Shown here: in pieces, positions 1,549 to 64,000 of the stretch
Layout: the number at the start of each line of letters is the position of its first letter
Numbering within the stretch: the stretch's first letter is position 1
NCBI GenBank assembly: GCA_016709875.1
Contig: JADJLZ010000009.1
Span: 218,824 to 282,823, forward strand
Source of the DNA: Planctomycetota bacterium
GTDB lineage: Bacteria; Planctomycetota; UBA1135; GCA-002686595
Direction: 5' to 3'
Length of the DNA: 64,000 nucleotides
Translations under genes and position numbers: made by a program
The notes under the pieces: generated by a model
Database searches by the model: none
Told to the model about the DNA's origin: nothing
Seen by the model: only the letters and a program-made list of their open reading frames with translations

Positions 1549-1687
1549 GTTCGGCTCCGGAACTCGTGGGTACGGGCCGATCATGATGAAGTGCCGCGCG
1601 CCGCAGGAAGGACGGAGCCCGGACTCGACGCGCAAAGCCCGTGTTGCGATACTGCGCTGCTCCCCTCCGAACGAAGGAACCTCCCCC

Positions 1688-3319
<1,632 letters not shown>

Positions 3320-3324
3320 CCCGC

Positions 3325-3600
3325 ATGAACTGGTCTGCCTTCCTCACCATCTTTTCCTCCGTCTTCGTTGCCGAGCTCGGCGACAAGACGCAGCTCTCGA
3401 CGCTGCTCTTCGCCGCTGACGCGCGCCACTCGCGCTGGACGGTCTTCGCCGCCGCCTCCCTCGCGCTCGTCAGCACATCCGCCCTCGGCGTCCTCGCAGG
3501 CTCGTTGCTCGGCAAGTCCCTCTCACCCATGCTGCTGCGCTACCTCGCAGGCATCGGTTTCATCGCGATCGGGATCTACACGCTGCTGCGGCGCGACTAG
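3325..3600 (+). CDS. UPF0016/GDT1 (TMEM165)-family membrane protein, single-repeat form
   Basis: MNWSAFLTIFSSVFVAELGDKTQLSTLLFAA... with the E-x-G-D-K-T signature. Hydrophobic, 91 aa. Starts 6 nt after the pruA stop. Confidence 0.7.
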   Translation: MNWSAFLTIFSSVFVAELGDKTQLSTLLFAADARHSRWTVFAAASLALVSTSALGVLAGSLLGKSLSPMLLRYLAGIGFIAIGIYTLLRRD

Positions 3601-3665
3601 CCCGCAACCCGCGGCGAGCGCCGCGGACACCCGGGGTGTCCACGGCGCTCACCTCCACGGAACCG

Positions 3666-5033
3666 TCAGTGAGCCTCGATGGCTCCCATGTCCAGGTACG
3701 TGCAGAAGCTGCACGCCGAGGAACCCACACCGGAATCGCCGACCGCGGTCTGATCGAAGAGCCTCTTTGATCCGACGGCATCCTCAGGGAGCGCTTCGGT
3801 TGTATCACCGTCACCATCGACGTCCAGGCTGTCGGTGGGCAGCAGACCGTAGTTGGCAGCATCGACGCAGAGTGAGGTGATCTTGAGCCTCAGGTTCCCG
3901 AGGCCGTGGTTGGAGAAGACGGGATCGAGGGTGATGTTCAACCCCGGGTATCCGCCCCCTTCGATGTCGGTGTAGTCCACCGTCACCGCACCCGCACCGC
4001 CGATCGGCGCCCCCAGTGCGAAGTTGTTGAAGTACAGAATCGAGTTGTACACCTCCGCCTGGCACGAGGTTCCGACGTACAAGGCCTGGCCGTCCGCGCT
4101 CGCGTTCCCCCGGTTGTCGGCCAGCGTGCAGTTCACGATCCGAGAGCTGGCGCCGGAGCTGGATGCGCCGACTTCCAGCGCGATCGCGCCTCCGGTGGAG
4201 GCGATCGAGGTGAAGTTGTTCCAGAAGACGCAGCTCGTGAAGTCGAGCCGGTCGCCCGAGTTGAATCCCGTGAGAAATACCGCGCCTCCGTCACCGGTGG
4301 ACACGCTTGCCTTGAAGCTCGAATCGACGACCTCACCGTGAGCGAACTCCGCGTAGATCGCGCCGCCCAAGTAGGCCTTGTTGTCGTTGAACTCGCAGTT
4401 CTTGATCTGCAGGAGTCCAGCAGCCGCGCTCATGCCCTTCGCGGCGTAGATCCCCCCACCGAGGTTCGTCAGAGCGACGGCCGCGTAGTTCGACGTCAAG
4501 AAGCAGTTCGCAAGTCCCACATCGCTGCCGATGGCCTGGATCCCGGCCCCGGAGACGTTCGCTCCGGTCGCGTAGCCGTTGCTGATCGCGAGGCCGTCGA
4601 TCACGACGCCGGGAGAGCCACCCGTGCCCACGACGTTCTGGATGTCGAGGACGTGCAGCGCGTTGTCGGTGTAGATGGCCAGGTTCCCGATGTTTCCATC
4701 GAGGATCGTGTTCGCGAACGAGCCCAGGCGCCCCTGAAGGGTGAGCTCCGTCCCCTTGAACCCGCCGTAGAACGAGAGAGGCCTGTTCACCACGAAGCCG
4801 GCGTTGGTGGCCGGCCGGTACGTGCCCTCGGCGATCCAACACGAATCCCCTGGCGCTGCTGCCGCCAGGGCGACGTTGAGGTCGTTGTAAGCCAACGCCC
4901 AGGTTGTGCCATTGCCGCCTGCTGCTGCGGCGACGTTCACATGGATCACCGCCGCCAGCGCGGGCGTGATCGTGAAGCAGACGAGGGATGCAGCGAGGGC
5001 GAGCGAGCGCCGAGCCACGAAGCGAGCGATCAT
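3666..5033 (-). CDS. Secreted right-handed beta-helix protein ('choice-of-anchor Q'-like C-terminal region), copy 1
   Basis: Signal peptide MIARFVARRSLALAASLVCFTITPALA. Repetitive G/N/A-rich beta-helix turns, NSILYFN, DYTDIEGG, and a C-terminal D-x-D-G-D ... GAIE motif. GGAGGA RBS 5 nt upstream of the ATG. Confidence 0.7.
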   Translation of the reverse strand: MIARFVARRSLALAASLVCFTITPALAAVIHVNVAAAAGGNGTTWALAYNDLNVALAAAAPGDSCWIAEGTYRPATNAGFVVNRPLSFYGGFKGTELTLQGRLGSFANTILDGNIGNLAIYTDNALHVLDIQNVVGTGGSPGVVIDGLAISNGYATGANVSGAGIQAIGSDVGLANCFLTSNYAAVALTNLGGGIYAAKGMSAAAGLLQIKNCEFNDNKAYLGGAIYAEFAHGEVVDSSFKASVSTGDGGAVFLTGFNSGDRLDFTSCVFWNNFTSIASTGGAIALEVGASSSGASSRIVNCTLADNRGNASADGQALYVGTSCQAEVYNSILYFNNFALGAPIGGAGAVTVDYTDIEGGGYPGLNITLDPVFSNHGLGNLRLKITSLCVDAANYGLLPTDSLDVDGDGDTTEALPEDAVGSKRLFDQTAVGDSGVGSSACSFCTYLDMGAIEAH

Positions 5034-5192
5034 GGGTTCCTCCGGAAGATCAGTGGTCGGCGGGATGCATCCGAGCCCGGGGGTCGGGAAGGGACCCCCG
5101 CCGAGAAATCGAAGCGTGACGGTTGCCTCCCCCCCCCCCTGTCAAGCGTATGCTCCAAGAAATCGCTGAGATTCCCACAGCGCGGAGGCACC

Positions 5193-7059
5193 ATGAAGTT
5201 CTCGATCCAGGCTCTCGCAGGTTCCCGCTCGAACGCCGCCCCACGGCGATCCCCAGTCGACACGAAGCGACTCATGCTCGCGTTCGGAGTGGCCGTGCTC
5301 GCGGCGACATCCTCTGCCCAATTGACCGAGCGCGTGAGCGTGACCTCGACCGGCGCACAGGCTTGGGGTGGCGGCGAAATCCCCACGCCCCCTGCGAATG
5401 CAGTGTCGGCCGATGGCCGCTTCGTGGCTTTCATGTCGGTGTCGCCGGACATCGTTTCCGGGGACACGAACAACAAGTGGGATGTCTTCGTGCGCGACCG
5501 GCTCAACAGGACGACCGAGCGCGTGAGCGTGAGCTCGAGTGGCGGCCAGGCGAACGCACACTCGGGCATCTGGGGCCTGGCAATGAGCCGCGACGCGCGT
5601 TTCGTGGTATTCCAGACCGACTCGACCAACCTCGTCACCGGAGGCACGAATGGGGCGTGGCACATCATTCTCCGCGATCGCCTCAACGGGACCACCGAGC
5701 TCGTCAGCGTCGATTCGAACGGAGTGCAGGGAAACGGTGGTTAGCTTCCATCCCGTCGTCACGGACGACGGGCGTTACGTAGCCTTCTCCAGCCTTGCGT
5801 CGAACCTCGTGCCTGGGGACACGAACAACACCGCAGATGTCTTCGTGCACGACCGGGTCACGGGTGCGACGGAGCGCATCAGCGTTTCGAGCGGTGGCAG
5901 CCAAAGCAACGGAACCAGTGAGTTTGCAAGCATCACTCCAGACGGTCGATTCGTTTCGTTCGATAGCACCGCCACGAGCCTTGTGCCCAGCGACACCAAT
6001 GCGCACTACGACGTCTTCCTACGCGACCGACTCACGGGCACGACAGAGATCGTGAGCCTTGGTTCGAATGGCGCGCAGGGGAACGGCGACTCGTGGGAAT
6101 CCACGTTGTCGACAGACGCCCGCTTCATCGCCTTCTCGAGCAGGGCCACAAATCTGCTGCAAGGAGACTCGAACGGCACCTTGGATGGCTTCGTTCGCGA
6201 CCGGCTGAGCGGAACAACCGAGTGCACGAATGTCTCCACCGCGGGAGTCCAGGGAGACCACGGCGCCACGTACTCCGTGATTTCGCCGGACGGCCGATAC
6301 GTTGCTTTCCGGAGCGATTCGAGCAATCTTGCCCTTCCCGCTCCTTCTGAGGGCATCTGCATCCGCGACCGTCAGCTCGGCACGACCGAGTATGCCAGCT
6401 ACTGCTACGACGGCTCGATCCCCAACGGAGAGACCGATCCGCCCTCGATCTCTCCCGACGCACGCTTTGTCGTTTTCCGCAGCTCCGGGACGAACCTCGT
6501 CCCCAACGACACGAACGCGAACACCGACGTCTTCCTCTACGACCGCTACGCAAGCTCGTTCACCAGCATCTGCGATCCGCTCGACGCCGCGGTGCTCGAC
6601 TGCCCCTGCAACAACCCGCCCGCCTCTCCCGGCCGCGGTTGCGACAACTCCTCCGCCACCGGCGGCGCCATGCTCGCCGCGAGCGGCGTCGCATCCCTCT
6701 CCGCGGACACGCTCGCCTTCAGCACCACCGGCGAGAAGCCCAACGCGACCAGCATCCTGCTCGAAGGCGACAGCGTCCTCGCCACGGGCGCCCCGTTCGG
6801 CCAAGGCGTGCGCTGCGTCGGCGGAACTCTCCGCCGCCTCTACACCAAGACCGCCCACAACGGAGCGGTCCTCGTACCGGACCTCGCCGCCTCCGATCCG
6901 ACGGTCTCCGCGCGCTGTGCGCAGCTCGGGGTCGCGATCACCCTCGGGGAGACGCGTGTCTTCCTCGTCTACTATCGCGACCCGCTCGTGCTCGGAGGCT
7001 GCGCCGCCACCAGCACCTACAACGCGACCCAGAGCGGTGCGGTTCTGTACGCGCCGTAG
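5193..7059 (+). CDS. PD40/TolB-like beta-propeller repeat protein with Cys-rich C-terminal domain; reading frame interrupted by an apparent +1 frameshift near 5736-5744
   Basis: Repeats of the form S..G.Q.NG.S..PSIS.DGRFVAF.S.ASNLV.GDTN...DVF.RDR run 5270-5744 in one frame and continue at 5746 in the next (...VQGNGG* / VSFHPVVTDDGRYVAF). GGAGG RBS sits before ATG 5193. An alternative start at ATG 5274 gives the MLAFGVAVLAATSSAQ signal peptide. Confidence 0.6.
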
Positions 7060-7285
7060 CACTCGAACGTTCGAGCCCCGCGCAGCCCGCTCGGGTTCCG
7101 TTCTCCCGTCGATGGAGGCCGAGCGAATGGCTCGCACACCCCTTCGAAACTTCACTTCCCCGGCGGCTGGCGCGGGGCTTTTCCGACGTCCTCCCTGCGC
7201 ACTTCGGCTGCTCCAGCGCCCGCCCCTGCGCCCCTGCGCCCCTGCGCTCCCCGCCTCCCCTCGCCCTCCCACCCAACACTCCGCG

Positions 7286-7321
7286 CGCAAAATCGCCGCG
7301 CGGCTGTGCCGCGCGGCGATG
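7286..7321 (-). terminator. Putative rho-independent terminator after the tlpA-like gene
   Basis: Perfect 10-bp inverted repeat CGCCGCGCGG-ctgtg-CCGCGCGGCG (7297-7321), followed on the minus strand by AUUUUG. Confidence 0.45.
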
Positions 7322-7376
7322 AGCGTGCGGAGTCGCGGGGCGGCTGCGCCGCCCCGCCCTCACTTCCTTCCGCGCC

Positions 7377-8564
7377 TCACTTCTTCGGCTTGGGCTTGGG
7401 CTTCTCGCCCGCCTTGCCCTTCTCCGGCTTCTCGCCGCTCTTCGGCTTTTCCGCCGGCGCCGCCTTCGCCTCGGCGATCAACTGATCGACAGCCTTGTCC
7501 ATCTCTTCGCCGCGGACGTTCTTGAACCGGATCACGCCCTTCGCGTCGAGCACGTAGATCGTCGGCCAGCTCGAGACGCCCCACTTGGTCGGCAGCGGAC
7601 CAGCGGTGCTGCCTTCGATCGCCTGCCGCCAGGTGATCTGCTCCTTCTCCAGGATTCCCTTCACCTTCGCGGCATCGCCATCGCTGTTGATGCCCAGCAG
7701 CGCGAAAGGTTCGTTCTTCAAGCGCTCAACGAGCGCGCGTTCGTGCGGGATCATCGCACGACAAGGGGGTCACCACTCGCCCCAGAAGTCGATCACCACC
7801 ACTTTCCCGCGGTAGTCCTCGAGCTTCCACTTCGCGCCGTTCTCGTCGACGGCCTCGAATCCGGGCGCGGTCTTCCCGATGCTCAGATTGTCCGCGACGA
7901 ACAACCATCCATCGGCCATCCCGCCGTAGGTCTCCTCGCCCCACGGCAGCTTCAGCGTGCCGTAGTCCTTTTTCATCTTCTCGTAGAGCGCGTGCAGCTC
8001 TTCGGCATCCTCGCCCTTCTCGCCGCCGACCTTCTGCACCTCCATGAACAACAACGCAGCCGCGACCGGCTTGGTCTTGTTCTTGGCCTTCAACTCTTCG
8101 AGCGCCTTCGGCCCTTCCTTCTTGCCGAGCAGCTGACCCGCGGCGAACACCAGCAGATCCGCCTCCGGCGAATCCAGGTGCTCGGCCACCATCACCTTCG
8201 CCGCCTCTTTCGCGGCGTCCATGTCGCCCGCGTTGCCCGCGAGCAGCATGACCTGCTTCAGCGCCTTGGCCGCGGTCTCGCTGCCCTTGGCCTCCTCGGC
8301 GAGCGCCTGGTACTTGGGCAAGAACAGCTTGTCCGGGCTCTCCTCGCCGAGCTTCTCGCGCTCGTCGTCGTCCTTCGCGGACTTCATCTTCTCCTCGAAG
8401 CTCTTGCGCGCGAGCGCGAGCTCCTTGTCCAGCCCGGCAAGCTTCGTCGCTTGCGCGTCCGGACTGCCCTGCTTCGTCGGCGCCTGCAGCGTCGCGTGCA
8501 CGGGCAGCGCCCACGCACCCAGCGACGCTCCCAGCGCCATCAACCAGACAGCACTCCTCTTCAT
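7377..8564 (-). CDS. Periplasmic TlpA/ResA-like thiol:disulfide oxidoreductase (thioredoxin fold) with in-frame TGA at 7770-7772 in the redox motif (W-U-P-P-C); candidate selenoprotein
   Basis: ORFs 7770..9440(-) and 7377..7754(-) are in the same frame, separated only by TGA. The context ...VVVIDFWGEW[TGA]PPCRAMIPHERALVERLKNEPFALLGINSD... matches the TlpA-family pattern FW-x-x-W-C-x-P-C...LG(V/I)..D, with TGA at the first Cys position. Start ATG 8562-8564 (MKRSAVWLMALGASLGAWALPVHA signal peptide) has an AGGAGG RBS. Confidence 0.7.
7715..7765 (-). promoter_or_regulatory. Candidate bacterial SECIS stem-loop(s) immediately 3' of the UGA
   Basis: mRNA after the UGA reads cccccuuGUCGUGCGaugauccCGCACGAaCgcGCGCUCguuGAGCGCuug. 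Hairpin 1 is an 8-bp stem with a 1-nt bulge and loop AUGAUCC, starting 9 nt after the UGA. Hairpin 2 is a 6-bp perfect stem with apical loop GUU, about 30-48 nt after the UGA. Confidence 0.3.
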
Positions 8565-8605
8565 GGAAACCTCCTCCTCGGGACCATTCCCGATCTGCTT
8601 CGATC

Positions 8606-10642
8606 CTACTCGACCAACTTCATCTCCACATTCAACGCCCACGCGCCGTCGATCTGGAAATACTCGAGCTCGAGCTTGTGCTTGCCCGCGGTGAGCTCGA
8701 CCTGCGCCTCGTCGCGCGCCGGCGCGTGCAGGTCCCAGTGCTCGATCACCGTCTTGCCGTCCAGCCGCAGGCGCACGCCGTCGTCCGAGACCACCGCCAG
8801 CGCGAACTTTCCGCCCGCGTCGAGCTCGAACTCCGCCACAGCGCTCATCCCGAAGTGCGAATCGCCCACCGCCTTGCGCACCTGCGCATCGCCGCCCCAG
8901 GGGTCGACCCAGTTCGGACAGGTCTTCGTGATCGCCGGTTGCGTTCCCAGCGCGCGCCACTCGCGCTCCTTCTCGCGCGGATCCGGCCCGTCCCTCCACG
9001 ACCACCAGCTCCCGATCCACCTCACGTCCTTCAACAACCCGCCCGGCAGCCTCGGCTTGGGCCGCGGCTCGCCACTGCGGAAATCCCACGGTCCCCACTC
9101 GCCCATCACGATCGTGTTCAAGCCCTGCGTCTCGCCGCGATCCTTGGCGAAGACCACCAGCTCGCCCTTCACCTCGGGGCACTTCCAGGCGCGCGCCTTG
9201 CGCACCCACTCGGGCTCCTTGCCGTCCCAGCTGCTGAGCGTGCCGTCGCGCACCTCGCCGCTGGCGGTCTTGCCGTCGCGGCCGCGCATCCAGCTCGTCG
9301 CGTCGCCGCGCTCGACCTTCAGGCGCTCCATGCGCATGTCGCCGCCGCTGTCGTAGCTGTTGCCGCCGATGCGCAGCCCGGTCGTCTTGTTGACCACCAG
9401 ATCCTTGCCATTGCGCGCGAACGCGTTCCCGTAGACCCACGTGTCGCGCGAGCTCGTGTCGCGGTTCTGGCCGTAGACGCCCTCAACCAGCTGCTTGTCC
9501 TCGTCCCACCACAGCTCGACGCCGATCTCGTTGGCCTCGATCTGGTTCTCGACGATCGCGTTCTCCTGGCCGTGCTCGATGCTGACGGCACCGCCGAGCG
9601 TGCGCTCGATGTTGTTCCCGAGCACGACCATGCGCCCGGAGTACCCGCCCCAGATCCCGTGCTGGTGGCTGCCGTTGAGCGCGTTCGAGAGCACCCAGTT
9701 GTTCTTCGAGAAGGTGGCCTCGATCGCGTTCGCAACCGCGTACGAGAAGTCGTTGCGGTACCAGATGTTGTCGTCGCAGCCGCCGGCGTCGCGCTCGCCG
9801 CGCTTGAAGGCGTTGCCCTCGTCGACCGTGTCCAGGCCCGCGAACAAGAACACACCGTCCCCGCCGTGCGTGGCGCTGTTCCACGCGAACAAATTCTCGC
9901 TGCACCTCTCGAACATCAGGATCCCGGCCGAGTCCTGGCCGCGCCAGTAGACCCCGTCGCTGAAGCCGCGCACGCAGTAGTCGAACAGGCAGTGGCTCAC
10001 CACGAACTTCGAGGTGCGGTACAGCCCCAGGCCCCAGCCCGAGAGGAACGAGAAGTCGCAGTCCCAGACCTCCCCGCCCGTGCAGCGCGTCAACAGGATC
10101 CCGTTCTGGCCGCGCCGCCCGCGGCAGCCGTGGAGCGAGACGTTCCGGCAGTTCGAGAGGCTCGCCGCCGCGCCGTAGTCGCGCAGCCACTCGCCCTTGT
10201 CGTTGTGGTGCGGGTAGAGCCAGTCGCTGCCGTCCTCGTAGGCGACGTTCGACAGCAGGTGCTTGCCGTACCAGCCGTCGAAGCTGACGCCGTCGAGCGT
10301 GATCCCGTCGCAGTCCTGCGCGACCACGCAACCGCGGTAGCCGCCGATCGTCCCGCCCTTGAGCGTCACGTCGTGGCAGCCCACGAGCACGATCCCGTAG
10401 CCCTCGCAGCGGTCGAGGTCCGTGCCCGCAGGCACGCCGCGCAGCTCCACGCCGGTGAGATCGAGCGTGACGCCCTTCACCGCTTCGATGCGCAGCACGC
10501 CGCGCAGGCCGTCCTCGCCCTGAGGGGGCAGCAGGTACTTCCCGGGAGCGACTTTCGCGCTCTGCTGCACTTCGAGCGTCTGCCCGGCCACGGGTTTCAC
10601 GTCCGCCGTGCACACAACCAGCGCCAAGACTGCGATCAGCAT
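8606..10642 (-). CDS. Secreted parallel beta-helix (pectin-lyase-fold) protein with C-terminal PA14-like domain
   Basis: ATG 10640-10642 with an AGGAG RBS. MLIAVLALVVCTADVKPVAG signal peptide. Many beta-helix repeat turns (NGIL..., NAIVENQIEAN...). C-terminal ...GKHKLELEYFQIDGAWALNVEMKL is typical of PA14. Confidence 0.65.
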   Translation of the reverse strand: MLIAVLALVVCTADVKPVAGQTLEVQQSAKVAPGKYLLPPQGEDGLRGVLRIEAVKGVTLDLTGVELRGVPAGTDLDRCEGYGIVLVGCHDVTLKGGTIGGYRGCVVAQDCDGITLDGVSFDGWYGKHLLSNVAYEDGSDWLYPHHNDKGEWLRDYGAAASLSNCRNVSLHGCRGRRGQNGILLTRCTGGEVWDCDFSFLSGWGLGLYRTSKFVVSHCLFDYCVRGFSDGVYWRGQDSAGILMFERCSENLFAWNSATHGGDGVFLFAGLDTVDEGNAFKRGERDAGGCDDNIWYRNDFSYAVANAIEATFSKNNWVLSNALNGSHQHGIWGGYSGRMVVLGNNIERTLGGAVSIEHGQENAIVENQIEANEIGVELWWDEDKQLVEGVYGQNRDTSSRDTWVYGNAFARNGKDLVVNKTTGLRIGGNSYDSGGDMRMERLKVERGDATSWMRGRDGKTASGEVRDGTLSSWDGKEPEWVRKARAWKCPEVKGELVVFAKDRGETQGLNTIVMGEWGPWDFRSGEPRPKPRLPGGLLKDVRWIGSWWSWRDGPDPREKEREWRALGTQPAITKTCPNWVDPWGGDAQVRKAVGDSHFGMSAVAEFELDAGGKFALAVVSDDGVRLRLDGKTVIEHWDLHAPARDEAQVELTAGKHKLELEYFQIDGAWALNVEMKLVE

Positions 10643-10711
10643 CCTGAATTCTCCTTCGTTCGCTCCGAGCGTACCGAACGCGCCCGGCATCCCCTATCCT
10701 GTTCCCCCCGC

Positions 10712-44976: not shown

Positions 44977-44989
44977 GGGGGGGGGGGGG
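44977..44989. repeat. G13 homopolymer tract in the intergenic region upstream of the ECF sigma gene
   Basis: Read directly: ccg ggggggggggggg ccggcg. Confidence 0.9.
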
Positions 44990-45441: not shown

Positions 45442-48113
45442 TGGACCCGCAACCCGTGCGCATCGAGGAGCTCCTGGCCCACGCCGGCTGGGTGCGCAAG
45501 CTCGCCGCACGCCTCGTGCGCGATGCCGGGACGGCCGACGATGTGGCGCAGGAGGTCTGGGCCTACGCGCTGCGCTCGCCGCCGCGCACGCGCTCGAACC
45601 TGCGCGCCTGGCTTTCCGCCGTGGTGCGCAACTCCGCGCGTTCGCTGCGCCGCGCCGAGGAGCGCAGGAGCCAGCACGAAGCGGCCGCACCCGCGCGCGG
45701 AGTCGAACCCGCCGCCGCCGAGCTCGTCGAGCGGGCGCACCTGCACCGCGATCTCGTCGAACAGGTGCTCGCGCTCGACGAGCCGCACCGCTCGATCGTG
45801 CTCGCGCACTGGTTCGAGGGCCAGAGCCTGGCGGAGATCGCGCGGCGGCAGGGGCTGAGCGCGCGCGTCGTCGCCGCGCGTCTCGACGCCGCGCACGAGC
45901 GGCTGCGGCAGCGCATGGACAAGTCCGCCGGCGGACGCGAGGCGTGGAGCCTCGCCTTCGTGAAGTGGACCGAACCGCATCTCGCGACCGCTGCGGCGGG
46001 CAGCGCCGGAACCGCCGTTACCTTGGGAGGACTCGTCTTGGCCAGCAAGCTCGTGATCGCAGGTGTCGTCGTGGTCGTCGCCGCGGGGCTGGGATGGATG
46101 CTCTGGCCGCGCGAACAGCCCTCCGCGCCCGTGGCGGGTGTTCCGGTGGCGAAGGAGACGCATGCTGAGAGCCTCGGATCCTCGCCCGATGGAGTCGCGC
46201 AACCGAACGTGGGCAGTGCGCGCGAGGCGCTGAAGCCCGAGAGCTCTGCGGGCGCCGCCTCCACGGCCGCTCCCCGCGAGCGCTGGATCGTCCGCGGCCA
46301 CGTCCACGGCGCACCCGGCGGACGCGCGGCGGAAACGACGCTCACAGCGCAATTCGTCGGCCAGTACAACATTCAAGAGCATGCATCCGCGAACGCGGCC
46401 AACGACGGTTCCTTCGAACTCGACGTGACCGAGATCCGCAAGCGATGGCTGCGCGACGCGGCACCATCCGAACTCATTGTCACTGCGGATCACCCCGTGT
46501 GTCTCCTCGCCGAAGCTCGAGCGGCCTACGGGAGCGCCACCATCGATCCAGACCCCAACGCCGATCCGCATGCCGTGTACGAGTGCGACATCAGTCTGAC
46601 CCCGGGGGCTGTCGTCACAGGGCGTGTCGTGACACCGTCGGACTGGAAGGCGCCGCAAGACTCCGGACGCGAACCTCACCGCCCTTGCGCCGGGATCTTC
46701 GATCTCGTCGCTGACTCGGCTCACCCTGAGGGTCTCAGCCACACGAGTTGCGATGAGCAGGGTCGCTGGACTCTCCGCGCAAATCATGGTGGGCCGCTGC
46801 TCGTGATCGCCTGTGCCGAGGGATTGCGGCCCGCATCGATCCAGGTCGAGGCCAGCGTCGGCACGTCCACGGACGCGGGCTCACTCGCACTGGGTCCCGG
46901 CGCAACGGTCTCCGGCTGGGTGGAGCGCGGAGGCAGTCGGGCCGGCCCCGGACTACGGGTCGCGGCGAGACTGAAGCTGGAGCGTTACGAGGGTCGCCGC
47001 GATATTCGGTCGGGGTACGGGGCGGATTTTCTGCTGTATCCGATCGCTGGAGCCTTCGAGCACTCTGTCCTGGGGGCGGAGACTCGAGCGGATGGGAGCT
47101 TCGAAATCCACGGGCTCGCGGCGACCGACTACGAATTGCGTGTCGACTCCGTGCCCGGTCTGCGCATGTACGTGGGCGGTCGTGACCCAGGCGAGCTCAC
47201 GGTGCACGCACCTCAGGCCGGAGTGGTCCTCGCAGGTGTACCCCCGTCGATCACCCTCCGGGCGACAGTCAACGGCCGCCCTCCGACGGACCCGGAACTC
47301 GACGGTGTCGTCATCGACCTCGTGCCGCTGTCGAAGGAGTCCAGCAAGGGCGAAATCGATCTCACGCGAAGCAAGGCTGGCTACGGCGTGCAGCTCCTCC
47401 CCGGCGTCGCCTACGAATTGCGCGTCCGACCTGGCCGGTACGTTCCAACCGTACTGCCCATAGGGGCGCTCGAGTTCGGAGAGCAACGCACGCTCGTCCT
47501 CGACCTGAAGCCACAGGATCAGGTCAGCACGCTCGTGCTGCGCTTCGCTGCGAAGCCCCCCGAACAGCTCGCCAGAGTGCGGATCGCGCTCCTCGATCCA
47601 TCCGCTTCGGACGACGAGGGAGCCGTGTGGCAATCGGTGAACCGCTCGGACCAGGGCACCTTCGTCCTGCGTGATCTCTCGCCAGGGACCTACCGCGCCC
47701 TCGTCCGGACCTACAGCATCTGGGACCGAGTCGAGATGACGTACTACCTGCCCTGCGAGTTCCCGCTCACCCTGGAACCGAAAGCAACCGTCGAGCGCGA
47801 GGTTCCCCTCGAACTCGGAGCGCGATTGCGCATGTCCGCCAAGGATGAGCGCGGCGGGTACGTGCGCGCTGCGGTCGAGTTGCGCGACGCCTCGGGCGCG
47901 AAGCTGGCCACCGATTTCTACTGCGTCACCGCGGGCATGCGCTACGGCTGCGGCTGGTATCTCTGCGAGCAGGGCCCCAACGATCACCCGCCGCTCCCTG
48001 CAGGACACTACGAGTTCACGCTCAAGGCCGAGGGCTTCGCCACCGAGGTCGTGCCCGTCGATCTCGTCGCCGGCGAGTTGAAGACGCTCGACGTCGTCCT
48101 GCACCCGAAGTGA
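45442..48113 (+). CDS. ECF sigma-70 factor fused to a transmembrane helix and a large periplasmic region of carboxypeptidase-regulatory/prealbumin-like beta-sandwich repeats (sigma/anti-sigma-like fusion)
   Basis: One uninterrupted frame. Sigma region 2 (DDVAQEVWAYALRSPPRTRSNLRAWLSAVVRNS), then region 4 (IVLAHWFEGQSLAEIARRQGLSARVVAARLDAAHERLRQRM), then a TM helix (LGGLVLASKLVIAGVVVVVAAGLGWMLW), then about 600 aa of repeated G.V..-type beta-sandwich modules (…VRGHVHGAPGG…DGSFEL…; …VSGWVERGG…DGSFEIHGLAATDYELRV…). Confidence 0.6.
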
Positions 48114-58049: not shown

Positions 58050-58937
58050 TCAGGTCTCCTCGGGGGCCGGGGTGGCGAGCTTGTCGAGGCCGCCGGAGAG
58101 GCCGGTGGACTCGGAGCGGCGTCCGCGCGCGAAGCGGCCGGACATGTTCTCCGGCATGCGGTTCTTGCCGGTCGGACGCGGCTCGTCGCCGCTGCGCGGC
58201 TGCGGGTCGTCGGAGTGCTTCTCGGCCGCGCCGGTGGTGGCCATGCGCTCGCGGTGGTTGGCGGCGCCTTCCTCCACGGAACGCACGAGGTTGTCGAGGA
58301 TCAGGCGCACCGACTTCAGCGCGTCGTCGTTGCCCGGGATCACGATGTCGATGCCGCTGGGATCGCAGTCGGTGTCGAGCACGCCGATCACGACCAGACC
58401 CATCTTGCGCGCTTCCTTGACCGCGTTGGCCTCGCGCGCGGGATCGACCACGACCATCGCGCCGGGGATCGTCGTCATCTCGCGGATGCCGCCCAGGTTG
58501 CGCACGATCTTGCGCCGCTCGCGGCGCAGGCTCGAACCCATCTTCTTCGAGTACTGGTTCATGCCGCCTTCCTCTTCCAGCTTCTCGAGCTCCTCGAGGC
58601 GCTTCAGGCGGCTGCGGATCACGGAGAAGTTGGTCAGGGTGCCGCCGATCCAGCGCTCGGTGACGATCGGCATGCCGGTGCGCTCACCGGCGTCCTGGAT
58701 GACGCCCTTCACCTGGCGCTTGGTGCCGACCCACAGGACGTTCGAGCCCTCGGCGGCGAGGTGGTAGAGCAGGTTCTTCGCGCGCAGGATCCCGCGCAGC
58801 GTCTCGCGCAGATCGATGATGTGGATCAGGTTGCGGCGGCCGTGGATGTACGGCGCCATCTTCGGGTTCCAGCGCGCCACGCGGCAGCCAAAGTGCACAC
58901 CCGCATCGATCAGTTCTTGGAGGTTGATGTCTTGCAT
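58050..58937 (-). CDS. rpsB: 30S ribosomal protein S2
   Basis: …AGVHFGCRVARWNPKMAPYI…, with an acidic C-terminal extension. Gene order rpsB-tsf-pyrH-frr is conserved. Confidence 0.9.
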   Translation of the reverse strand: MQDINLQELIDAGVHFGCRVARWNPKMAPYIHGRRNLIHIIDLRETLRGILRAKNLLYHLAAEGSNVLWVGTKRQVKGVIQDAGERTGMPIVTERWIGGTLTNFSVIRSRLKRLEELEKLEEEGGMNQYSKKMGSSLRRERRKIVRNLGGIREMTTIPGAMVVVDPAREANAVKEARKMGLVVIGVLDTDCDPSGIDIVIPGNDDALKSVRLILDNLVRSVEEGAANHRERMATTGAAEKHSDDPQPRSGDEPRPTGKNRMPENMSGRFARGRRSESTGLSGGLDKLATPAPEET

Positions 58938-60316: not shown

Positions 60317-61759
60317 CTACTGCTTCTCGAACGCGCCCATGTCCACGTACGTGTTCGCGGGAACGCCCAGATTCGCCGACGGCAGCCAGTCCACGTTGCG
60401 AACCGAACCGGTGTAGCAGACGGGCATGATCTGGGTGGTCGTGAAGCCGTCATCGTTCACGTCGAGGTTGTCGAACGGGAGCTTCGTTCGGTCGGCATTG
60501 TCGATGCACGGCGACGCCGGTGTGGCCTGTCCGGGGCCGAGCAGATGCAGGGTGTCCGGTGAGGCCAGCGACCTGAAGACAGGATTGAGATTCGTGATTG
60601 TGCCAGCGGCAAGGGTGCCTTGGATGTCGCAGTAGGACATGGCTGCTGGCGCGGCGCCCCCGAGAGGGTAGAAACCTCCCGCGGCAGTCGGATTGAAGTA
60701 GAGAATCGAATTGTGCACCTCGCAGTTCGCTCCGGTCCCCAGGTACAGGGCGTGGCCGTTTCCAATGCTCGGTGCCGAGTTCAACACCATCGTGCAGTTC
60801 ACCACCTGCGCGTTTCCAGGAGAACTCGAGCCCGTGCCCAGGCAAAGGCCGCCGCCGTGGCCAGACCCGCCGGCTCCCGTATTCGCCGTGTTGCGGTAGT
60901 AGATGCAGTTCGTGAACCACAGCGTGCTCGTCGGAGCCATGTCCTCCAGGTAGACCGCCCCGCCGTCGCTGAGCAGCGTGTAGTTCTCATTGAAGAGCAC
61001 GTTGACGATGTCGCCGGTCTTGAGGAACGCCCCGAAGAGTGCTCCGCCCTTCGACTCCACGTGATTCGATCGGAACTCCGAGGTCTTGATGTTCAGGCGC
61101 TGCTCGAAGCCAGGCGCCCCGGTGAAGTACAAGCCTCCGCCGTTCGCACCGCCCGCCTCGTTGTCGAAGAAGTACATGTTCGCGAGGTCGACCCCCGACC
61201 CTTCCGAGAACATTCCTCCCCCATTCGCGCCGCCGATGCCGCCAGATGCGTGGCCACGCGTAACCTGGAAGCCGTCGATCACGACGGGCACGGGTGTGAC
61301 GCCGCTGACAGTGATCACCCGCATGGTTGTGGTGCCATCCAGGATGGTATTCCTGAACAAACCGGCTCGGGTAGCGACCGAGCCCTCGCCGCCATCGAAT
61401 CCGCCGTAGATGAGCAGCTGCTTGGTGATCAGAAAGCCGTCGGTCGGGTTGCTTGGCACGTAGCTTCCGTCGGCCACCCAGAGGCTGTCACCTGGGCTTG
61501 CGGCCAGGATCGCGTCGTCGAGCGCCGTCGCCGTATTGAACGCGTTCGTCCAGTCGAGTCCGGTGTTCCCGCTGCCCGTCGCGTGCACATCCACGTGCCA
61601 AACCGTCGGCACCGGTGGGGTCAGCGCGGAGACCGAGAAGACGAGAGCGGTCGTGACGAGTACCAACAGAGCGGCGAGCGAAGCGAGACGATGTCGTTTC
61701 AGAGCGAGTTGCATGAGCAACCTCCGATTCAAGGAATTGGGAAGGAGATGGGAAGCCAA
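60317..61759 (-). CDS. Secreted right-handed beta-helix protein ('choice-of-anchor Q'-like), copy 2 (paralog of 3666-5033)
   Basis: N-terminal hydrophobic anchor/signal. Same beta-helix repeats, NSILYFN, C-terminal D-V-N-D-D-G...VDMGAFE motif. Confidence 0.7.
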   Translation of the reverse strand: MASHLLPNSLNRRLLMQLALKRHRLASLAALLVLVTTALVFSVSALTPPVPTVWHVDVHATGSGNTGLDWTNAFNTATALDDAILAASPGDSLWVADGSYVPSNPTDGFLITKQLLIYGGFDGGEGSVATRAGLFRNTILDGTTTMRVITVSGVTPVPVVIDGFQVTRGHASGGIGGANGGGMFSEGSGVDLANMYFFDNEAGGANGGGLYFTGAPGFEQRLNIKTSEFRSNHVESKGGALFGAFLKTGDIVNVLFNENYTLLSDGGAVYLEDMAPTSTLWFTNCIYYRNTANTGAGGSGHGGGLCLGTGSSSPGNAQVVNCTMVLNSAPSIGNGHALYLGTGANCEVHNSILYFNPTAAGGFYPLGGAAPAAMSYCDIQGTLAAGTITNLNPVFRSLASPDTLHLLGPGQATPASPCIDNADRTKLPFDNLDVNDDGFTTTQIMPVCYTGSVRNVDWLPSANLGVPANTYVDMGAFEKQ

Positions 61760-62249
61760 GTCTCAGCGAGCCGATCGATCTGGAACTGCGGGGCTCTCAG
61801 GAAGCCTCGCCCAGCAGTTCCCGGTGGGTGGTTCTGAACGCACCCCTCTTCCCAACAGCTGCAAGCCACCAGTTCACCAAGGGGCAACTGCACCGCCGTT
61901 CGATGCGATCCGCAGACGAGCGGGATCGCATTCGGCGAGGCATGGAGCTCCGCGCGGAAGGCGTTGGAGGCAAGGTTGGAATCGGGAAGCGATCCAGCAC
62001 GGGCGCACGCTACCAGCGAGCGGCGAGGATGTGGTGTAAGGGGGGGGGTAAGAGATGCTTGCCAGGTTGCACAAATGGGCGTCTGCATCGGGGCGCTCAT
62101 CGGCGGGACGAGGAGCGGATCGCCTGAAATCCAGGTCCCCTGAGCTGGGTCGTCGGGTAGTGTGAACCGCAGTTGGTGGAGGCGGCAAGCCGACCAAGCT
62201 CGCTGCACCGAAACGCACTCAAGGCCTCGCAAGCACGCAGGAGCTTCCC

Positions 62250-64000
62250 GTGAAAGTACTCTCGCTCGCAGCAGCACTCGCGACGTCGGCGTCCGTCTGT
62301 CACGCCCAGGTCACTGAGCGTGTGAGCTTGGGGCCCGGGTATCAGCAATCCCCCGGCGGCGCAGAACCAGCCGGGAACGGGGGGTATGTAAGCGCGGACG
62401 GCAGATACGTCTGCTTCATGTGCAGCGGCCAGTTGGCGGGTAGTAGCGTAGGGGTCAACGTTGGGCTTCTGCGAGACAGGCAAACCGGTACAACCGAATG
62501 CATCAGTGTCGACCCGGCTGGAGTACCGCAGGCAGCCAGCGTCAACCAGGGCCTTTGGCTTTCACACAATGGCCGGTTTGTGGCCTTCCGTGCCGAGGCC
62601 ACGAATCTCGTGCCCGGGGACACCAACGGTGTCGCCGACATCTTCCTGCGCGATCGCAGGCACGCAACCACGGAGCGGGTGAGCGTGGGTCCTGGTGGAA
62701 CACAATCGAACGCCCAGTCCATGTATCCGGCTGTCTCCGACGACGGGCGCTTCATCGTGTTCGTCAGCAGTGCATCCAATCTCGTCCTCGGAGACACGAA
62801 TGGGGTACCCGATATCTTCCTTCGGGATCGGCAGGCGGGCTCCACGCAGCGAGTCAGCGTTTCCAGCCTCGGGGCGCAGGGAAACGGAGCATCGGACCTC
62901 CCCTCGATCACGCCGGACGGTCGGTTCGTGGCGTTCATGAGTGCCGCATCCAACCTGGTTGCAGGGGACCTGAATGGCCATGCAGACGTGTTTCTGCGTG
63001 ACCGCGCGACCGGGTCGACCCAGCGCGTGAGCGTCGCGTCCGACGGAGCAGAGGGTGACGGCGACTCGTACCAACCCGCCCTCTCCGACGATGGGCGCTT
63101 CGTCGCCTTCAGCAGTTGGGCGACGACTCTGGTGCCGGGCGACACCAATTTCGCGATGGATGTCTTCGTCCGCGACATGCAGCTGGGAACAACCGAGCGT
63201 GTCAGCCTCGGACAGACGGGCGCTCAGGGCAATTCCCATAGCGGCTTTGCGAGCATCACCGCAGACGGTCGCTGGGTGTCCTTCTCCAGTGAAGCGAGCA
63301 ATCTTCTCGGTGGAAGCATCACGCCGCTCGGTGGCGTCTTCGTCCGCGACCGCCTGACCAATACGCTCGAGAAGGTCGACACGCCGACTGGAGGAGGGAT
63401 CCAGAACGGCATCCCACTTACGACCAGCATGACTCCCGATGGTCGCTACATTGCGTTTCGGAGCGAGGCCAGCGACCTGGTTCCCGGGGACACCAACAAC
63501 AGCGCCGACATCTTCATCCACGACCGTCACGCCTCCGGCTTCACCGGCATCTGCGACCCGGGCACGAACAACGTCCTCCCCTGCCCCTGCAACAACCCGC
63601 CCTCCGGCCCTGGCCAAGGCTGCGACAACTCCTCCTTCACCGGCGGTGCGATCCTCGCCGCGCAGGGCTACGCCTACGTCTCGATCGACAGCCTCGTCTT
63701 CACCACGCTGCTCGAAAACCCAGCGCCCCTCAGCATCCTGCTCCAAGGCTCAGGAGTAGCCGTGAACGGCGTCGCCTTCGGCCAGGGCGTGCGCTGCGCC
63801 GGCGGTGTGCTGAAGCGCCTCTACGTGAAGCAGGCCGCCAACGGCAGCATCACGGCGCCCGAACTCGGCGCCGGCGACGCGACGGTCTCCGCGCGCTGCG
63901 CGCAGCTCGGCATCCCGATCCAGTCGGGACAAGCGCACATCTACCAGGTCTACTACCGCGACTCGACCGTGCTCGGTGGCTGCCCCGCGGCGAGCACCTT
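62250..64000 (+). CDS. PD40/TolB-like beta-propeller repeat protein with Cys-rich C-terminal domain, copy 2 (3' end beyond window)
   Basis: GTG 62250 with an AGGAG RBS. Signal peptide VKVLSLAAALATSASVCHA. About 9 PD40-type repeats. C-terminal domain shares about 55% identity with 6558-7056. Open to the window end. Confidence 0.7.
   Translation, partial: MKVLSLAAALATSASVCHAQVTERVSLGPGYQQSPGGAEPAGNGGYVSADGRYVCFMCSGQLAGSSVGVNVGLLRDRQTGTTECISVDPAGVPQAASVNQGLWLSHNGRFVAFRAEATNLVPGDTNGVADIFLRDRRHATTERVSVGPGGTQSNAQSMYPAVSDDGRFIVFVSSASNLVLGDTNGVPDIFLRDRQAGSTQRVSVSSLGAQGNGASDLPSITPDGRFVAFMSAASNLVAGDLNGHADVFLRDRATGSTQRVSVASDGAEGDGDSYQPALSDDGRFVAFSSWATTLVPGDTNFAMDVFVRDMQLGTTERVSLGQTGAQGNSHSGFASITADGRWVSFSSEASNLLGGSITPLGGVFVRDRLTNTLEKVDTPTGGGIQNGIPLTTSMTPDGRYIAFRSEASDLVPGDTNNSADIFIHDRHASGFTGICDPGTNNVLPCPCNNPPSGPGQGCDNSSFTGGAILAAQGYAYVSIDSLVFTTLLENPAPLSILLQGSGVAVNGVAFGQGVRCAGGVLKRLYVKQAANGSITAPELGAGDATVSARCAQLGIPIQSGQAHIYQVYYRDSTVLGGCPAAST

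Follow-up and report, generated by a model that had tools for sequence, protein, structure and literature searches.

The DNA considered here, referred to below as the window, is a stretch of 64,000 nt from the metagenome-assembled genome (MAG) of a Planctomycetota bacterium (GenBank assembly GCA_016709875.1, the 282,823-bp contig JADJLZ010000009.1, positions 218,824 to 282,823; locus tags IPJ19_), with a G+C content of 70%. Near each end of the window lies a divergently oriented gene pair formed by a beta-helix gene (bh) and a propeller gene (pd), and a simple-sequence tract is located in the control region that the two genes share (Table 1). Pair 1 (bh1/pd1) is designated W1 and pair 2 (bh2/pd2) W2. 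The original prediction of two divergent pairs whose products carry signal peptides was borne out, since the starts of all four open reading frames could be located and a Sec-type signal peptide is found at the start of each product. The probable start of bh2, as judged from its aligned homologs, is the ATG at 61714. The propeller proteins have in common a cleavage site between A and Q in the context AQ(V/L)TERVS.

Table 1. Positions of the paired genes, their control regions and their tracts in the window
Feature	Position	Strand	Description
bh1	3666..5033	-	455 aa; secreted right-handed parallel beta-helix with PMP-like repeats; 100% identical to IPJ19_14995
Pair-1 shared divergent control region	5034..5192	.	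159 nt between both start codons
C11 tract	5129..5139	.	In the pair-1 control region; G11 on the bh1 sense strand
pd1	5193..7059	+	Signal peptide, 7-bladed PD40 propeller and Cys-rich C-terminal beta-sandwich; broken by a 1-nt insertion
pd1 C-terminal domain	6565..7056	+	About 164 aa with 6 conserved Cys; undescribed domain
bh2	60317..61759	-	480 aa from TTG; paralog of bh1, 36% identical
Pair-2 shared divergent control region	61760..62249	.	Between bh2 and pd2
G9 tract	62040..62048	pd2 sense strand	In the pair-2 control region, inside TGTAA-G9-TAAGAGATG
pd2	62250..64000	+	Propeller and C-terminal domain, paralog of pd1; truncated at the end of the window, about 13 aa before the stop

The bh1/bh2 identity given in Table 1 extends over the full length of the proteins (BLASTP E 2e-59), and pd1 and pd2 are 51% identical (BLASTP E 0.0). 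The protein identity of 50-55% initially estimated by eye therefore holds for the propellers and not for the beta-helices. In the nucleotide sequence, similarity is left only at the 3' ends of the pd genes, the best blastn segment being 71% identical over 529 nt, and this strong divergence rules out an assembly duplicate, as had been argued from the outset. A tblastn search of the window for further copies of the pair found none. In the four pair genes the G+C content at third codon positions (GC3) is 0.78-0.83, against 0.89-0.95 in flanking housekeeping genes (high values are seen, e.g., in the aldehyde dehydrogenase gene at 1676-3319, the NosD/PA14 protein gene at 8606-10690 and rpsB at 58050-58937), which suggests an atypical codon usage.

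Pairing and duplication of the two genes

Co-occurrence of beta-helix and PD40 genes in other organisms, which had been proposed as a check on the module, was observed outside the source genome in at least 16 independent metagenomic loci with unrelated flanks (17 with locus L095). In all eight independent metagenomic loci found via a close bh homolog (41-48% identity; L001, L003, L006, L007, L010, L103, L104 and L105), a divergent pd partner of ~600 aa lies upstream at a distance of 150-300 nt, and the flanking genes are wholly different between these loci. A metagenome scan with the C-terminal domain (CTD) of pd gave more than 546 matches, from which 79 loci were kept. Ten of them contain a bh homolog (L027, L029, L034, L042, L048, L051, L075, L078, L085 and L095), which in nine is located divergently upstream of pd and in the exception, L027, downstream and convergent. 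The 18 pairs analysed below are W1, W2, the eight bh-found pairs and eight pd-found pairs of identical architecture, with L095, in which bh is also upstream of pd, left out. Close bh homologs always come with pd, and a distant one (29% identity) has no propeller neighbour, while pd belongs to a far larger multi-copy family. The bh-pd pair is a genuine conserved module. A scan of a genome collection with the bh alignment returned one close relative only, on a contig already in the locus set, which indicates that cultured representatives are lacking.

The search for further copies, also suggested at the outset, disclosed a third and recent pair in the same MAG, in which P0002 is 91% identical to bh1 and P0307 (pd3) 81% identical to pd1. 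These two proteins have consecutive accessions (MBK7642909/MBK7642908) on a 184,951-bp contig, their adjacency being deduced from the numbering, and two more pd paralogs of the same MAG are encoded on a 580,706-bp contig. Judged from these sequences, the pair duplicates as a unit. Moreover, the pairwise distances of bh and pd correlate (r = 0.74-0.84). W1 and W2 do not group as sisters in either of the neighbour-joining trees that were built for bh and for pd from 14 pairs, and W2 forms a deep branch in both; W1 and W2 are therefore ancient lineages and not the outcome of a local tandem event. From the ancient segmental duplication of the original prediction, old paralogous copies of a secreted two-gene module are thus retained, but the qualifier segmental has to be dropped because the copies are not closest relatives in either tree.

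The interval 5193-7059 had been taken as one gene, which is not how it reads: frame 0 stops at a TAG at 5742-5744 and the remainder is in frame +1. Because P0407, an intact paralog of the same MAG, reads GNGGCFHPVV across the frameshift point, the lesion in pd1 can be assigned to one extra A at 5743. In the database entry P0307 exactly this stretch of 16 residues is read out of frame, after which the frame is restored, and both P0002 and P0307 lack their N-termini as annotated. Assembly indels and real pseudogenisation are equally plausible causes of the frameshifts in pd1 and P0307, since the paralogs are nearly identical over this stretch. A comparison of pd1, P0307 and P0407 gives identities of 93-100% for blades 2-4 and the CTD and of 36-73% for blades 5-7. 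This distribution suggests a mosaic in which the ends may have been homogenised by gene conversion, the central blades may have diversified, or both may have happened, and a blade mosaic of this kind would be typical of recombining or diversifying surface-protein families.

Composition of the two proteins

PD40 (PF07676) is the only Pfam family above its gathering cut-off in pd1 (25.2 bits versus a cut-off of 20.9 bits), and it scores 56.5 bits in pd2. Each pd protein contains seven DGR-x-V-x-F and seven D-V-F-x-R-D-R motifs, corresponding to seven blades, and ends in a CTD of roughly 160-170 aa with six conserved Cys, the model of which is a beta-sandwich (pLDDT 91.8). The CTD is more conserved than the propeller (65.6% versus 55.1% mean identity); it has no relative in Pfam, and a PDB sequence search with it gave nothing meaningful. 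In a survey of CTD position in a representative library, the 40,443 matches were mostly generic PD40 proteins, since the profile included a propeller blade, and only entries matching up to the profile end were counted. In these the CTD is always at the extreme C-terminus, in proteins of 326 to 1086 aa. It also occurs behind other N-terminal domains (RCC1, CHRD), and variants have 1, 2, about 5 or 14 blades ahead of the same CTD (P0071, P0053, P0150). Tandem arrays of two or three propeller-CTD genes on the same strand are frequent (L035, L083, L034, L052, L074, L094, L045). Proteins consisting of the CTD only were considered as a separate class, which was discarded because they were mostly fragments, the source search having returned nothing longer than about 1.75x the query. 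The CTD is an undescribed domain that marks hundreds of secreted propeller proteins, and it is apparently restricted to Planctomycetota metagenomes.

The closest known counterparts of pd are TolB-like PD40 proteins, which have the same type of repeat and likewise place a C-terminal module behind one or two propellers. In the propeller homologs of other organisms, this C-terminal slot is occupied by three SLH domains, a dockerin or RTX repeats, whereas in pd it holds the undescribed Cys-rich beta-sandwich. Because related propellers carry SLH, dockerin or RTX in that slot, the CTD may function as an envelope-anchoring or sorting module. The C-terminal sorting domains of the type IX secretion system (T9SS) of Bacteroidota share with the CTD only the terminal position and an Ig-like fold; the CTD has no sequence similarity to them, is about twice their size and contains six conserved Cys, and the T9SS sorting models PF18962/TIGR04183 gave no pd match in Pfam and NCBIfam searches. 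Two further analogies were considered and rejected. One was a NosD/NosZ-like system, which would likewise combine a beta-helix, a 7-bladed propeller and a Cys-containing beta-sandwich; pd is devoid of histidine ligands and no nos genes are linked to it. The other was a dockerin-cohesin contact between a DxDxDG loop of bh and the CTD of pd, and no cohesin was present among the fold matches.

For bh, an AlphaFold model built on the family alignment is a confident right-handed beta-helix from residue 28 to about 360, and this predicted structure superposes on solved beta-helix proteins. Neither bh1 nor bh2 has a Pfam or NCBIfam match that reaches threshold, and a PDB sequence search with the bh profile returned nothing meaningful. 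Weak matches occur among 15 bh members to Chlam_PMP (7), POMP_repeat (6), RbtA (4), Beta_helix (3) and choice-of-anchor Q (2). The PMP repeats (PF02415) are thus matched by seven of the 15 members with a best E of 2.1e-4, the match of bh1 itself (E 0.017, 15.7 bits) being under the gathering score of 20.6 bits. No Pfam match to the autotransporter barrel (PF03797) or the Pmp middle domain (PF07548) was obtained with any of the 15 members. The protein extends for about 95 residues beyond the helix; its C-terminus reads ...DMGAIEAH and bears no hydrophobic tail, GlyGly-CTERM or other sorting tail. bh is a Sec-exported right-handed beta-helix protein, probably of the PMP-like repeat class, without a membrane anchor of its own.

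The description of bh as 'anchor-Q'-like did not hold. With NF041518 (choice-of-anchor Q), bh1 and bh2 gave no match at E<10, and only two of the 15 family members match, with a best E of 0.0057. Rhombotarget A (TIGR04212) scores 18.1 bits, over residues 189-254 only, against an equivalog cut-off of 295 bits. Therefore, bh is far under the curated cut-offs of these families (RbtA, 18 versus 295 bits), in addition to lacking GlyGly-CTERM. The cap motif of bh (G-x-SW-x-A ... GD-x-IWVA-x-GxY) and its terminal D-x-GA-x-E presumably resemble those of the choice-of-anchor Q and rhombotarget A (PDB 9cdu) families.

The repeat tract and its flanks

Runs of G or C of at least 9 nt occur only three times in the window: the C11 and G9 tracts of the two pairs (5129-5139 and 62040-62048) and a third run at 44977-44989. 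The segment between the mature N-termini of bh and pd was surveyed for tracts in the 18 pairs, and in 12 of them a tract is located mid-intergenically. It is a G/C run of 9-11 nt in W1, W2, L001, L103, L029 (two runs), L034, L042 and L051, G7 in L006, (GTCGAG)4 in L007 and L105, and (GTGGG)4 in L078. A simple-sequence repeat in the promoter or 5' region of a candidate surface-protein gene, the arrangement by which contingency loci are recognised, is thus found in 12 of the 18 pairs. The tract is specific to the pair: nine of the ten G/C runs of at least 9 nt in 647 kb of non-redundant retrieved sequence fall in the 7.9 kb of bh-pd segments (binomial about 6e-17), so that in about 650 kb of related sequence long poly-G tracts are all but confined to the control region of the pair. 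None of the 51 unpaired pd genes for which 300 nt or more of upstream sequence was available is preceded by a tract (run of at least 8 nt or repeat of at least 16 nt), against five of the eight paired pd genes of that data set (Fisher p = 1e-5). No k-mer of at least 8 nt is shared by at least three loci across the intergenic regions, and the repeat tracts are their only common theme. Rfam detected only three tRNAs in the whole window at gathering thresholds, and hence no known RNA element in either intergenic region.

The tract also turns over at a homologous position. In one aligned column of the orthologous intergenic regions L103 has G11, L006 has G7, L003 has no repeat, and L105 and L007 have (GTCGAG)4; lengths of G7, G9, G10 and G11 are represented among orthologs. 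A different behaviour is seen in W2 (62035-62057) and L042 (2234-2256), which contain an identical 23-nt element, TGTAA-G9-TAAGAGATG, with proteins only about 40-50% identical, and in which the tract is on the opposite strand to that of the other pairs.

Promoter-like sequences adjoin the tract in several pairs, with TATGCT, TATTCT, CATGCT or CATAAT as -10-like hexamers. In W1 the order is TTGCCT (5123-5128), the C11 tract, TGTCAAGCG and TATGCT (5149-5154), so that C11 and 9 nt separate both hexamers. Reading toward pd, W1, L001, L051, L078 and L034 share the succession of tract, N1-6, GTCAA, 3-6 nt and a -10-like hexamer, which is TATGCT in W1 and L051, TATTCT in L001, CATGCT in L078 and a poorer TCTATG in L034. 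In W1 and L001 the tract is bordered directly on its other side by a -35-like TTGCCT or TTGACC, so that the spacer measures 19-20 nt with the tract at its current length. Toward bh, L006, L007, L103 and L105 contain GTAAC(T/C)-N18-TATGAT-like sequences and the tract begins 0-7 nt after the hexamer, a place at which bh transcription is predicted to start.

Two observations touch on the tract from outside the surveyed pairs. The 5' end of pd and its upstream leader are 94-100% identical between L034 (4362-4800) and L096 (2300-2933), and the similarity ends about 35 nt before the TTGAC-G10 tract of L034; L096 has neither tract nor bh. L096 may be a near-identical paralog or strain, with a recombination breakpoint at this control region. 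The third run of the window, G13 at 44977-44989, is its longest homopolymer and is intergenic, about 450 nt upstream of an extracytoplasmic function (ECF) sigma-like gene at about 45444-48113 on the plus strand. This gene encodes a fusion of an ECF-sigma part (Sigma70_r2/r4), a transmembrane segment and a CarboxypepD_reg-like part, has a GC3 of 0.80, low like that of bh and pd, and may be another repeat-associated envelope gene.

Readings of the module and its surroundings

The bh-pd pair can be interpreted, tentatively and with a little less than even confidence, as a duplicated, secreted and probably surface-displayed two-protein module whose divergent promoter contains a contingency-type repeat. 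In this model both proteins would be exported, and pd would be held at the cell envelope by its CTD and present or retain the anchor-less bh as a binding or adhesin surface. Both genes would be driven from one short shared control region, in which the tract, mostly G9-G11, beside the -10-like hexamers, would either set the promoter geometry or sit at the transcription start. Slipped-strand mispairing would change the length of the tract and thereby turn expression of the pair up or down, in the manner of classical contingency loci, and several diverged copies per genome combined with tract switching could generate a variable surface repertoire. The full form of this proposal, namely that the pair is a true contingency locus in which a slipped-strand poly-G or oligo-repeat in a bidirectional promoter stochastically switches a surface bh/pd complex in free-living Planctomycetota, is doubtful in our estimation.

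Known repeat-controlled genes provide the framework for this model. In porA a poly-G tract occupies the -35/-10 spacer and in hifA/hifB TA repeats are part of a bidirectional promoter (PMC3899988). Compared with these switches (N. meningitidis porA poly-G, H. influenzae hifA/hifB TA, and also Bordetella fim poly-C), the tract of the pair is similarly placed between divergent genes for exported or surface proteins and beside -10-like hexamers; here, however, the promoters are putative, the estimated spacer is 19-20 nt and the tract is missing in a third of the pairs. The other comparison is with the chlamydial Pmp proteins, beta-helix adhesins subject to phase variation through poly-G/C tracts, the superfamily of which has been cited as conserved in Planctomycetes (PMC6740158). 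Pmp and bh apparently share a beta-helix of GGA(I/L/V)/FxxN-type repeats (PF02415/TIGR01376 give weak matches in 6-7 of 15 bh members). Both come from the PVC superphylum, both form paralog families that have expanded and include pseudogene-like copies, and long G/C homopolymers are associated with the genes (PMC6740158). In contrast to Pmp, bh is devoid of the autotransporter barrel and the Pmp middle domain and has a propeller partner, the tract lies in the intergenic control region and not inside the open reading frame, and the hosts are free-living environmental bacteria in which switching is a proposal.

Several observations weigh against the contingency model. Six of the 18 pairs have no tract at all. 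Most genes of the CTD/pd family are unpaired, so that pd works without bh, and the last 95 residues of the bh1 model are of low confidence. A sigma-70 and terminator scan over positions 3400-7400 detected no promoter with hexamers 16-18 nt apart, and the assignment of the promoter-like sequences is ambiguous between both directions. No tract-length polymorphism is seen among the replicate contigs L007/8/9 and L003/4/5, which are identical consensus contigs, and the second contig of the L001 locus (L002) ends short of the tract. Finally, the W2/L042 element is identical and of the same G9 length despite protein divergence, which in that subgroup appears easier to reconcile with a fixed cis-element than with a tract that slips freely. 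This last point and the lack of length variation in sample replicates lead to the main rival explanation, which we regard as a serious though rather doubtful one: the tract would be a protein-binding site, a G-rich structure or an initially transcribed G-run with reiterative transcription, and the pair would be conventionally co-regulated. It would agree with the G-richness of all three tract types, each of which has at least four G-runs or one long G-run, and with the position of the tract in L006, L007, L103 and L105, where the bh transcript would start. However, close orthologs differ at the same aligned column (G11, G7, none or four copies of a hexamer), the strand of the tract differs between groups, a third of the pairs do without it, and a specific binding site is not expected to be replaceable by unrelated repeat units.

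The remaining alternatives concern the proteins and the data. In an enzyme-plus-scaffold reading, bh would be secreted to degrade an environmental glycan as a lyase, hydrolase or epimerase of polysaccharides, with pd as the partner for substrate binding or positioning, which would be in keeping with the role of Planctomycetes as glycan degraders. We consider this unlikely, because the family-invariant residues of bh are mostly Gly and Asn, hence structural, and among the charged residues of the helix turns only D146, K211, E214 and D356 are invariant. These residues seem unlike a lyase or hydrolase site and give no support for a known one; judging from the family alignment, an Asp cluster such as that of PL1, PL9 or GH28 is missing. 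In addition, no CAZy-type Pfam match was obtained and no conserved glycan-utilisation genes are found near the loci. Compared with the PL9 pectate lyase Pel9A (1ru4) and other beta-helix enzymes, bh is 14% identical, has no sequence-level match in PDB and shows no conserved acidic Ca-binding or catalytic cluster in its family alignment. Two-partner secretion, or an autotransporter arrangement, in which bh would be the passenger and the neighbour its outer-membrane transporter, had been among the original suggestions on the strength of a general likeness, the gene of a beta-helix exoprotein standing beside that of a second secreted protein. It is very improbable, as the partner is a 7-bladed propeller with a beta-sandwich and has no POTRA or Omp85 barrel, bh has neither a two-partner secretion (TPS) domain nor an autotransporter barrel, and the genes are divergent and not in an operon. 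As for an assembly or sequencing artefact behind the repeated pair or the homopolymers, the pd1 frameshift and the stretch of 16 aa over which the pd3 entry is also out of frame would fit it, and the MAG may be a long-read assembly, a type of data with frequent indels of this sort. The probability of this explanation is close to nil given that the copies are deeply diverged and that tracts recur at a homologous position with conserved flanks in contigs of independent projects and sources (ENA, JGI, NCBI and Logan).

Both folds (beta-helix and PD40 propeller) and the concept of repeat-controlled surface genes are already known. New, as far as the literature shows, are the obligate pairing, the undescribed CTD and the clustering of poly-G tracts in a putative divergent promoter of a planctomycete, and none of the matches listed in a literature search on phase variation and homopolymeric tracts in Planctomycetes dealt with this feature. 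Planctomycetota are abundant in soil, peat and wastewater, and next to nothing is known about the construction and variation of their cell surface. A conserved multi-copy exported pair would offer a concrete handle on surface variation in non-pathogenic environmental bacteria and, if the contingency reading holds, a connection with the Pmp families of Chlamydiae, which are related bacteria. Were the locus to switch as proposed, the diverged copies and hypervariable blades would constitute a variable surface coat, directed, e.g., against phages or grazers, and would represent an environmental counterpart of chlamydial Pmp variation with a new C-terminal envelope-anchoring domain; we know of no earlier description of a phase-variable system in Planctomycetota. 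Were the tract inert, only a lineage-specific pair of hypothetical secreted proteins would remain.

Two neighbours of pair 1 deserve mention. A NosD-like secreted beta-helix protein with a C-terminal PA14 domain is encoded on the minus strand at 8606-10690, 1.5 kb from the pair, and has no similarity to bh by tblastn. Also on the minus strand, the interval 7377-9440 encodes a TlpA/AhpC-TSA-like thioredoxin-fold protein split by an in-frame TGA (7770-7772). This codon takes the place of the first Cys of the WCxxC motif (FWGEW-TGA-PPCRAMIPHE), and the two halves of the protein match positions 1-35 and 39-123 of the AhpC-TSA profile. The protein is a candidate UxxC selenoprotein, the alternative being a TGC-to-TGA error, and a 7-bp hairpin at 7741-7761 (UCGUGCG...CGCACGA; fold z-score only -1.5), which begins 9 nt after the TGA, may represent its SECIS-like element.

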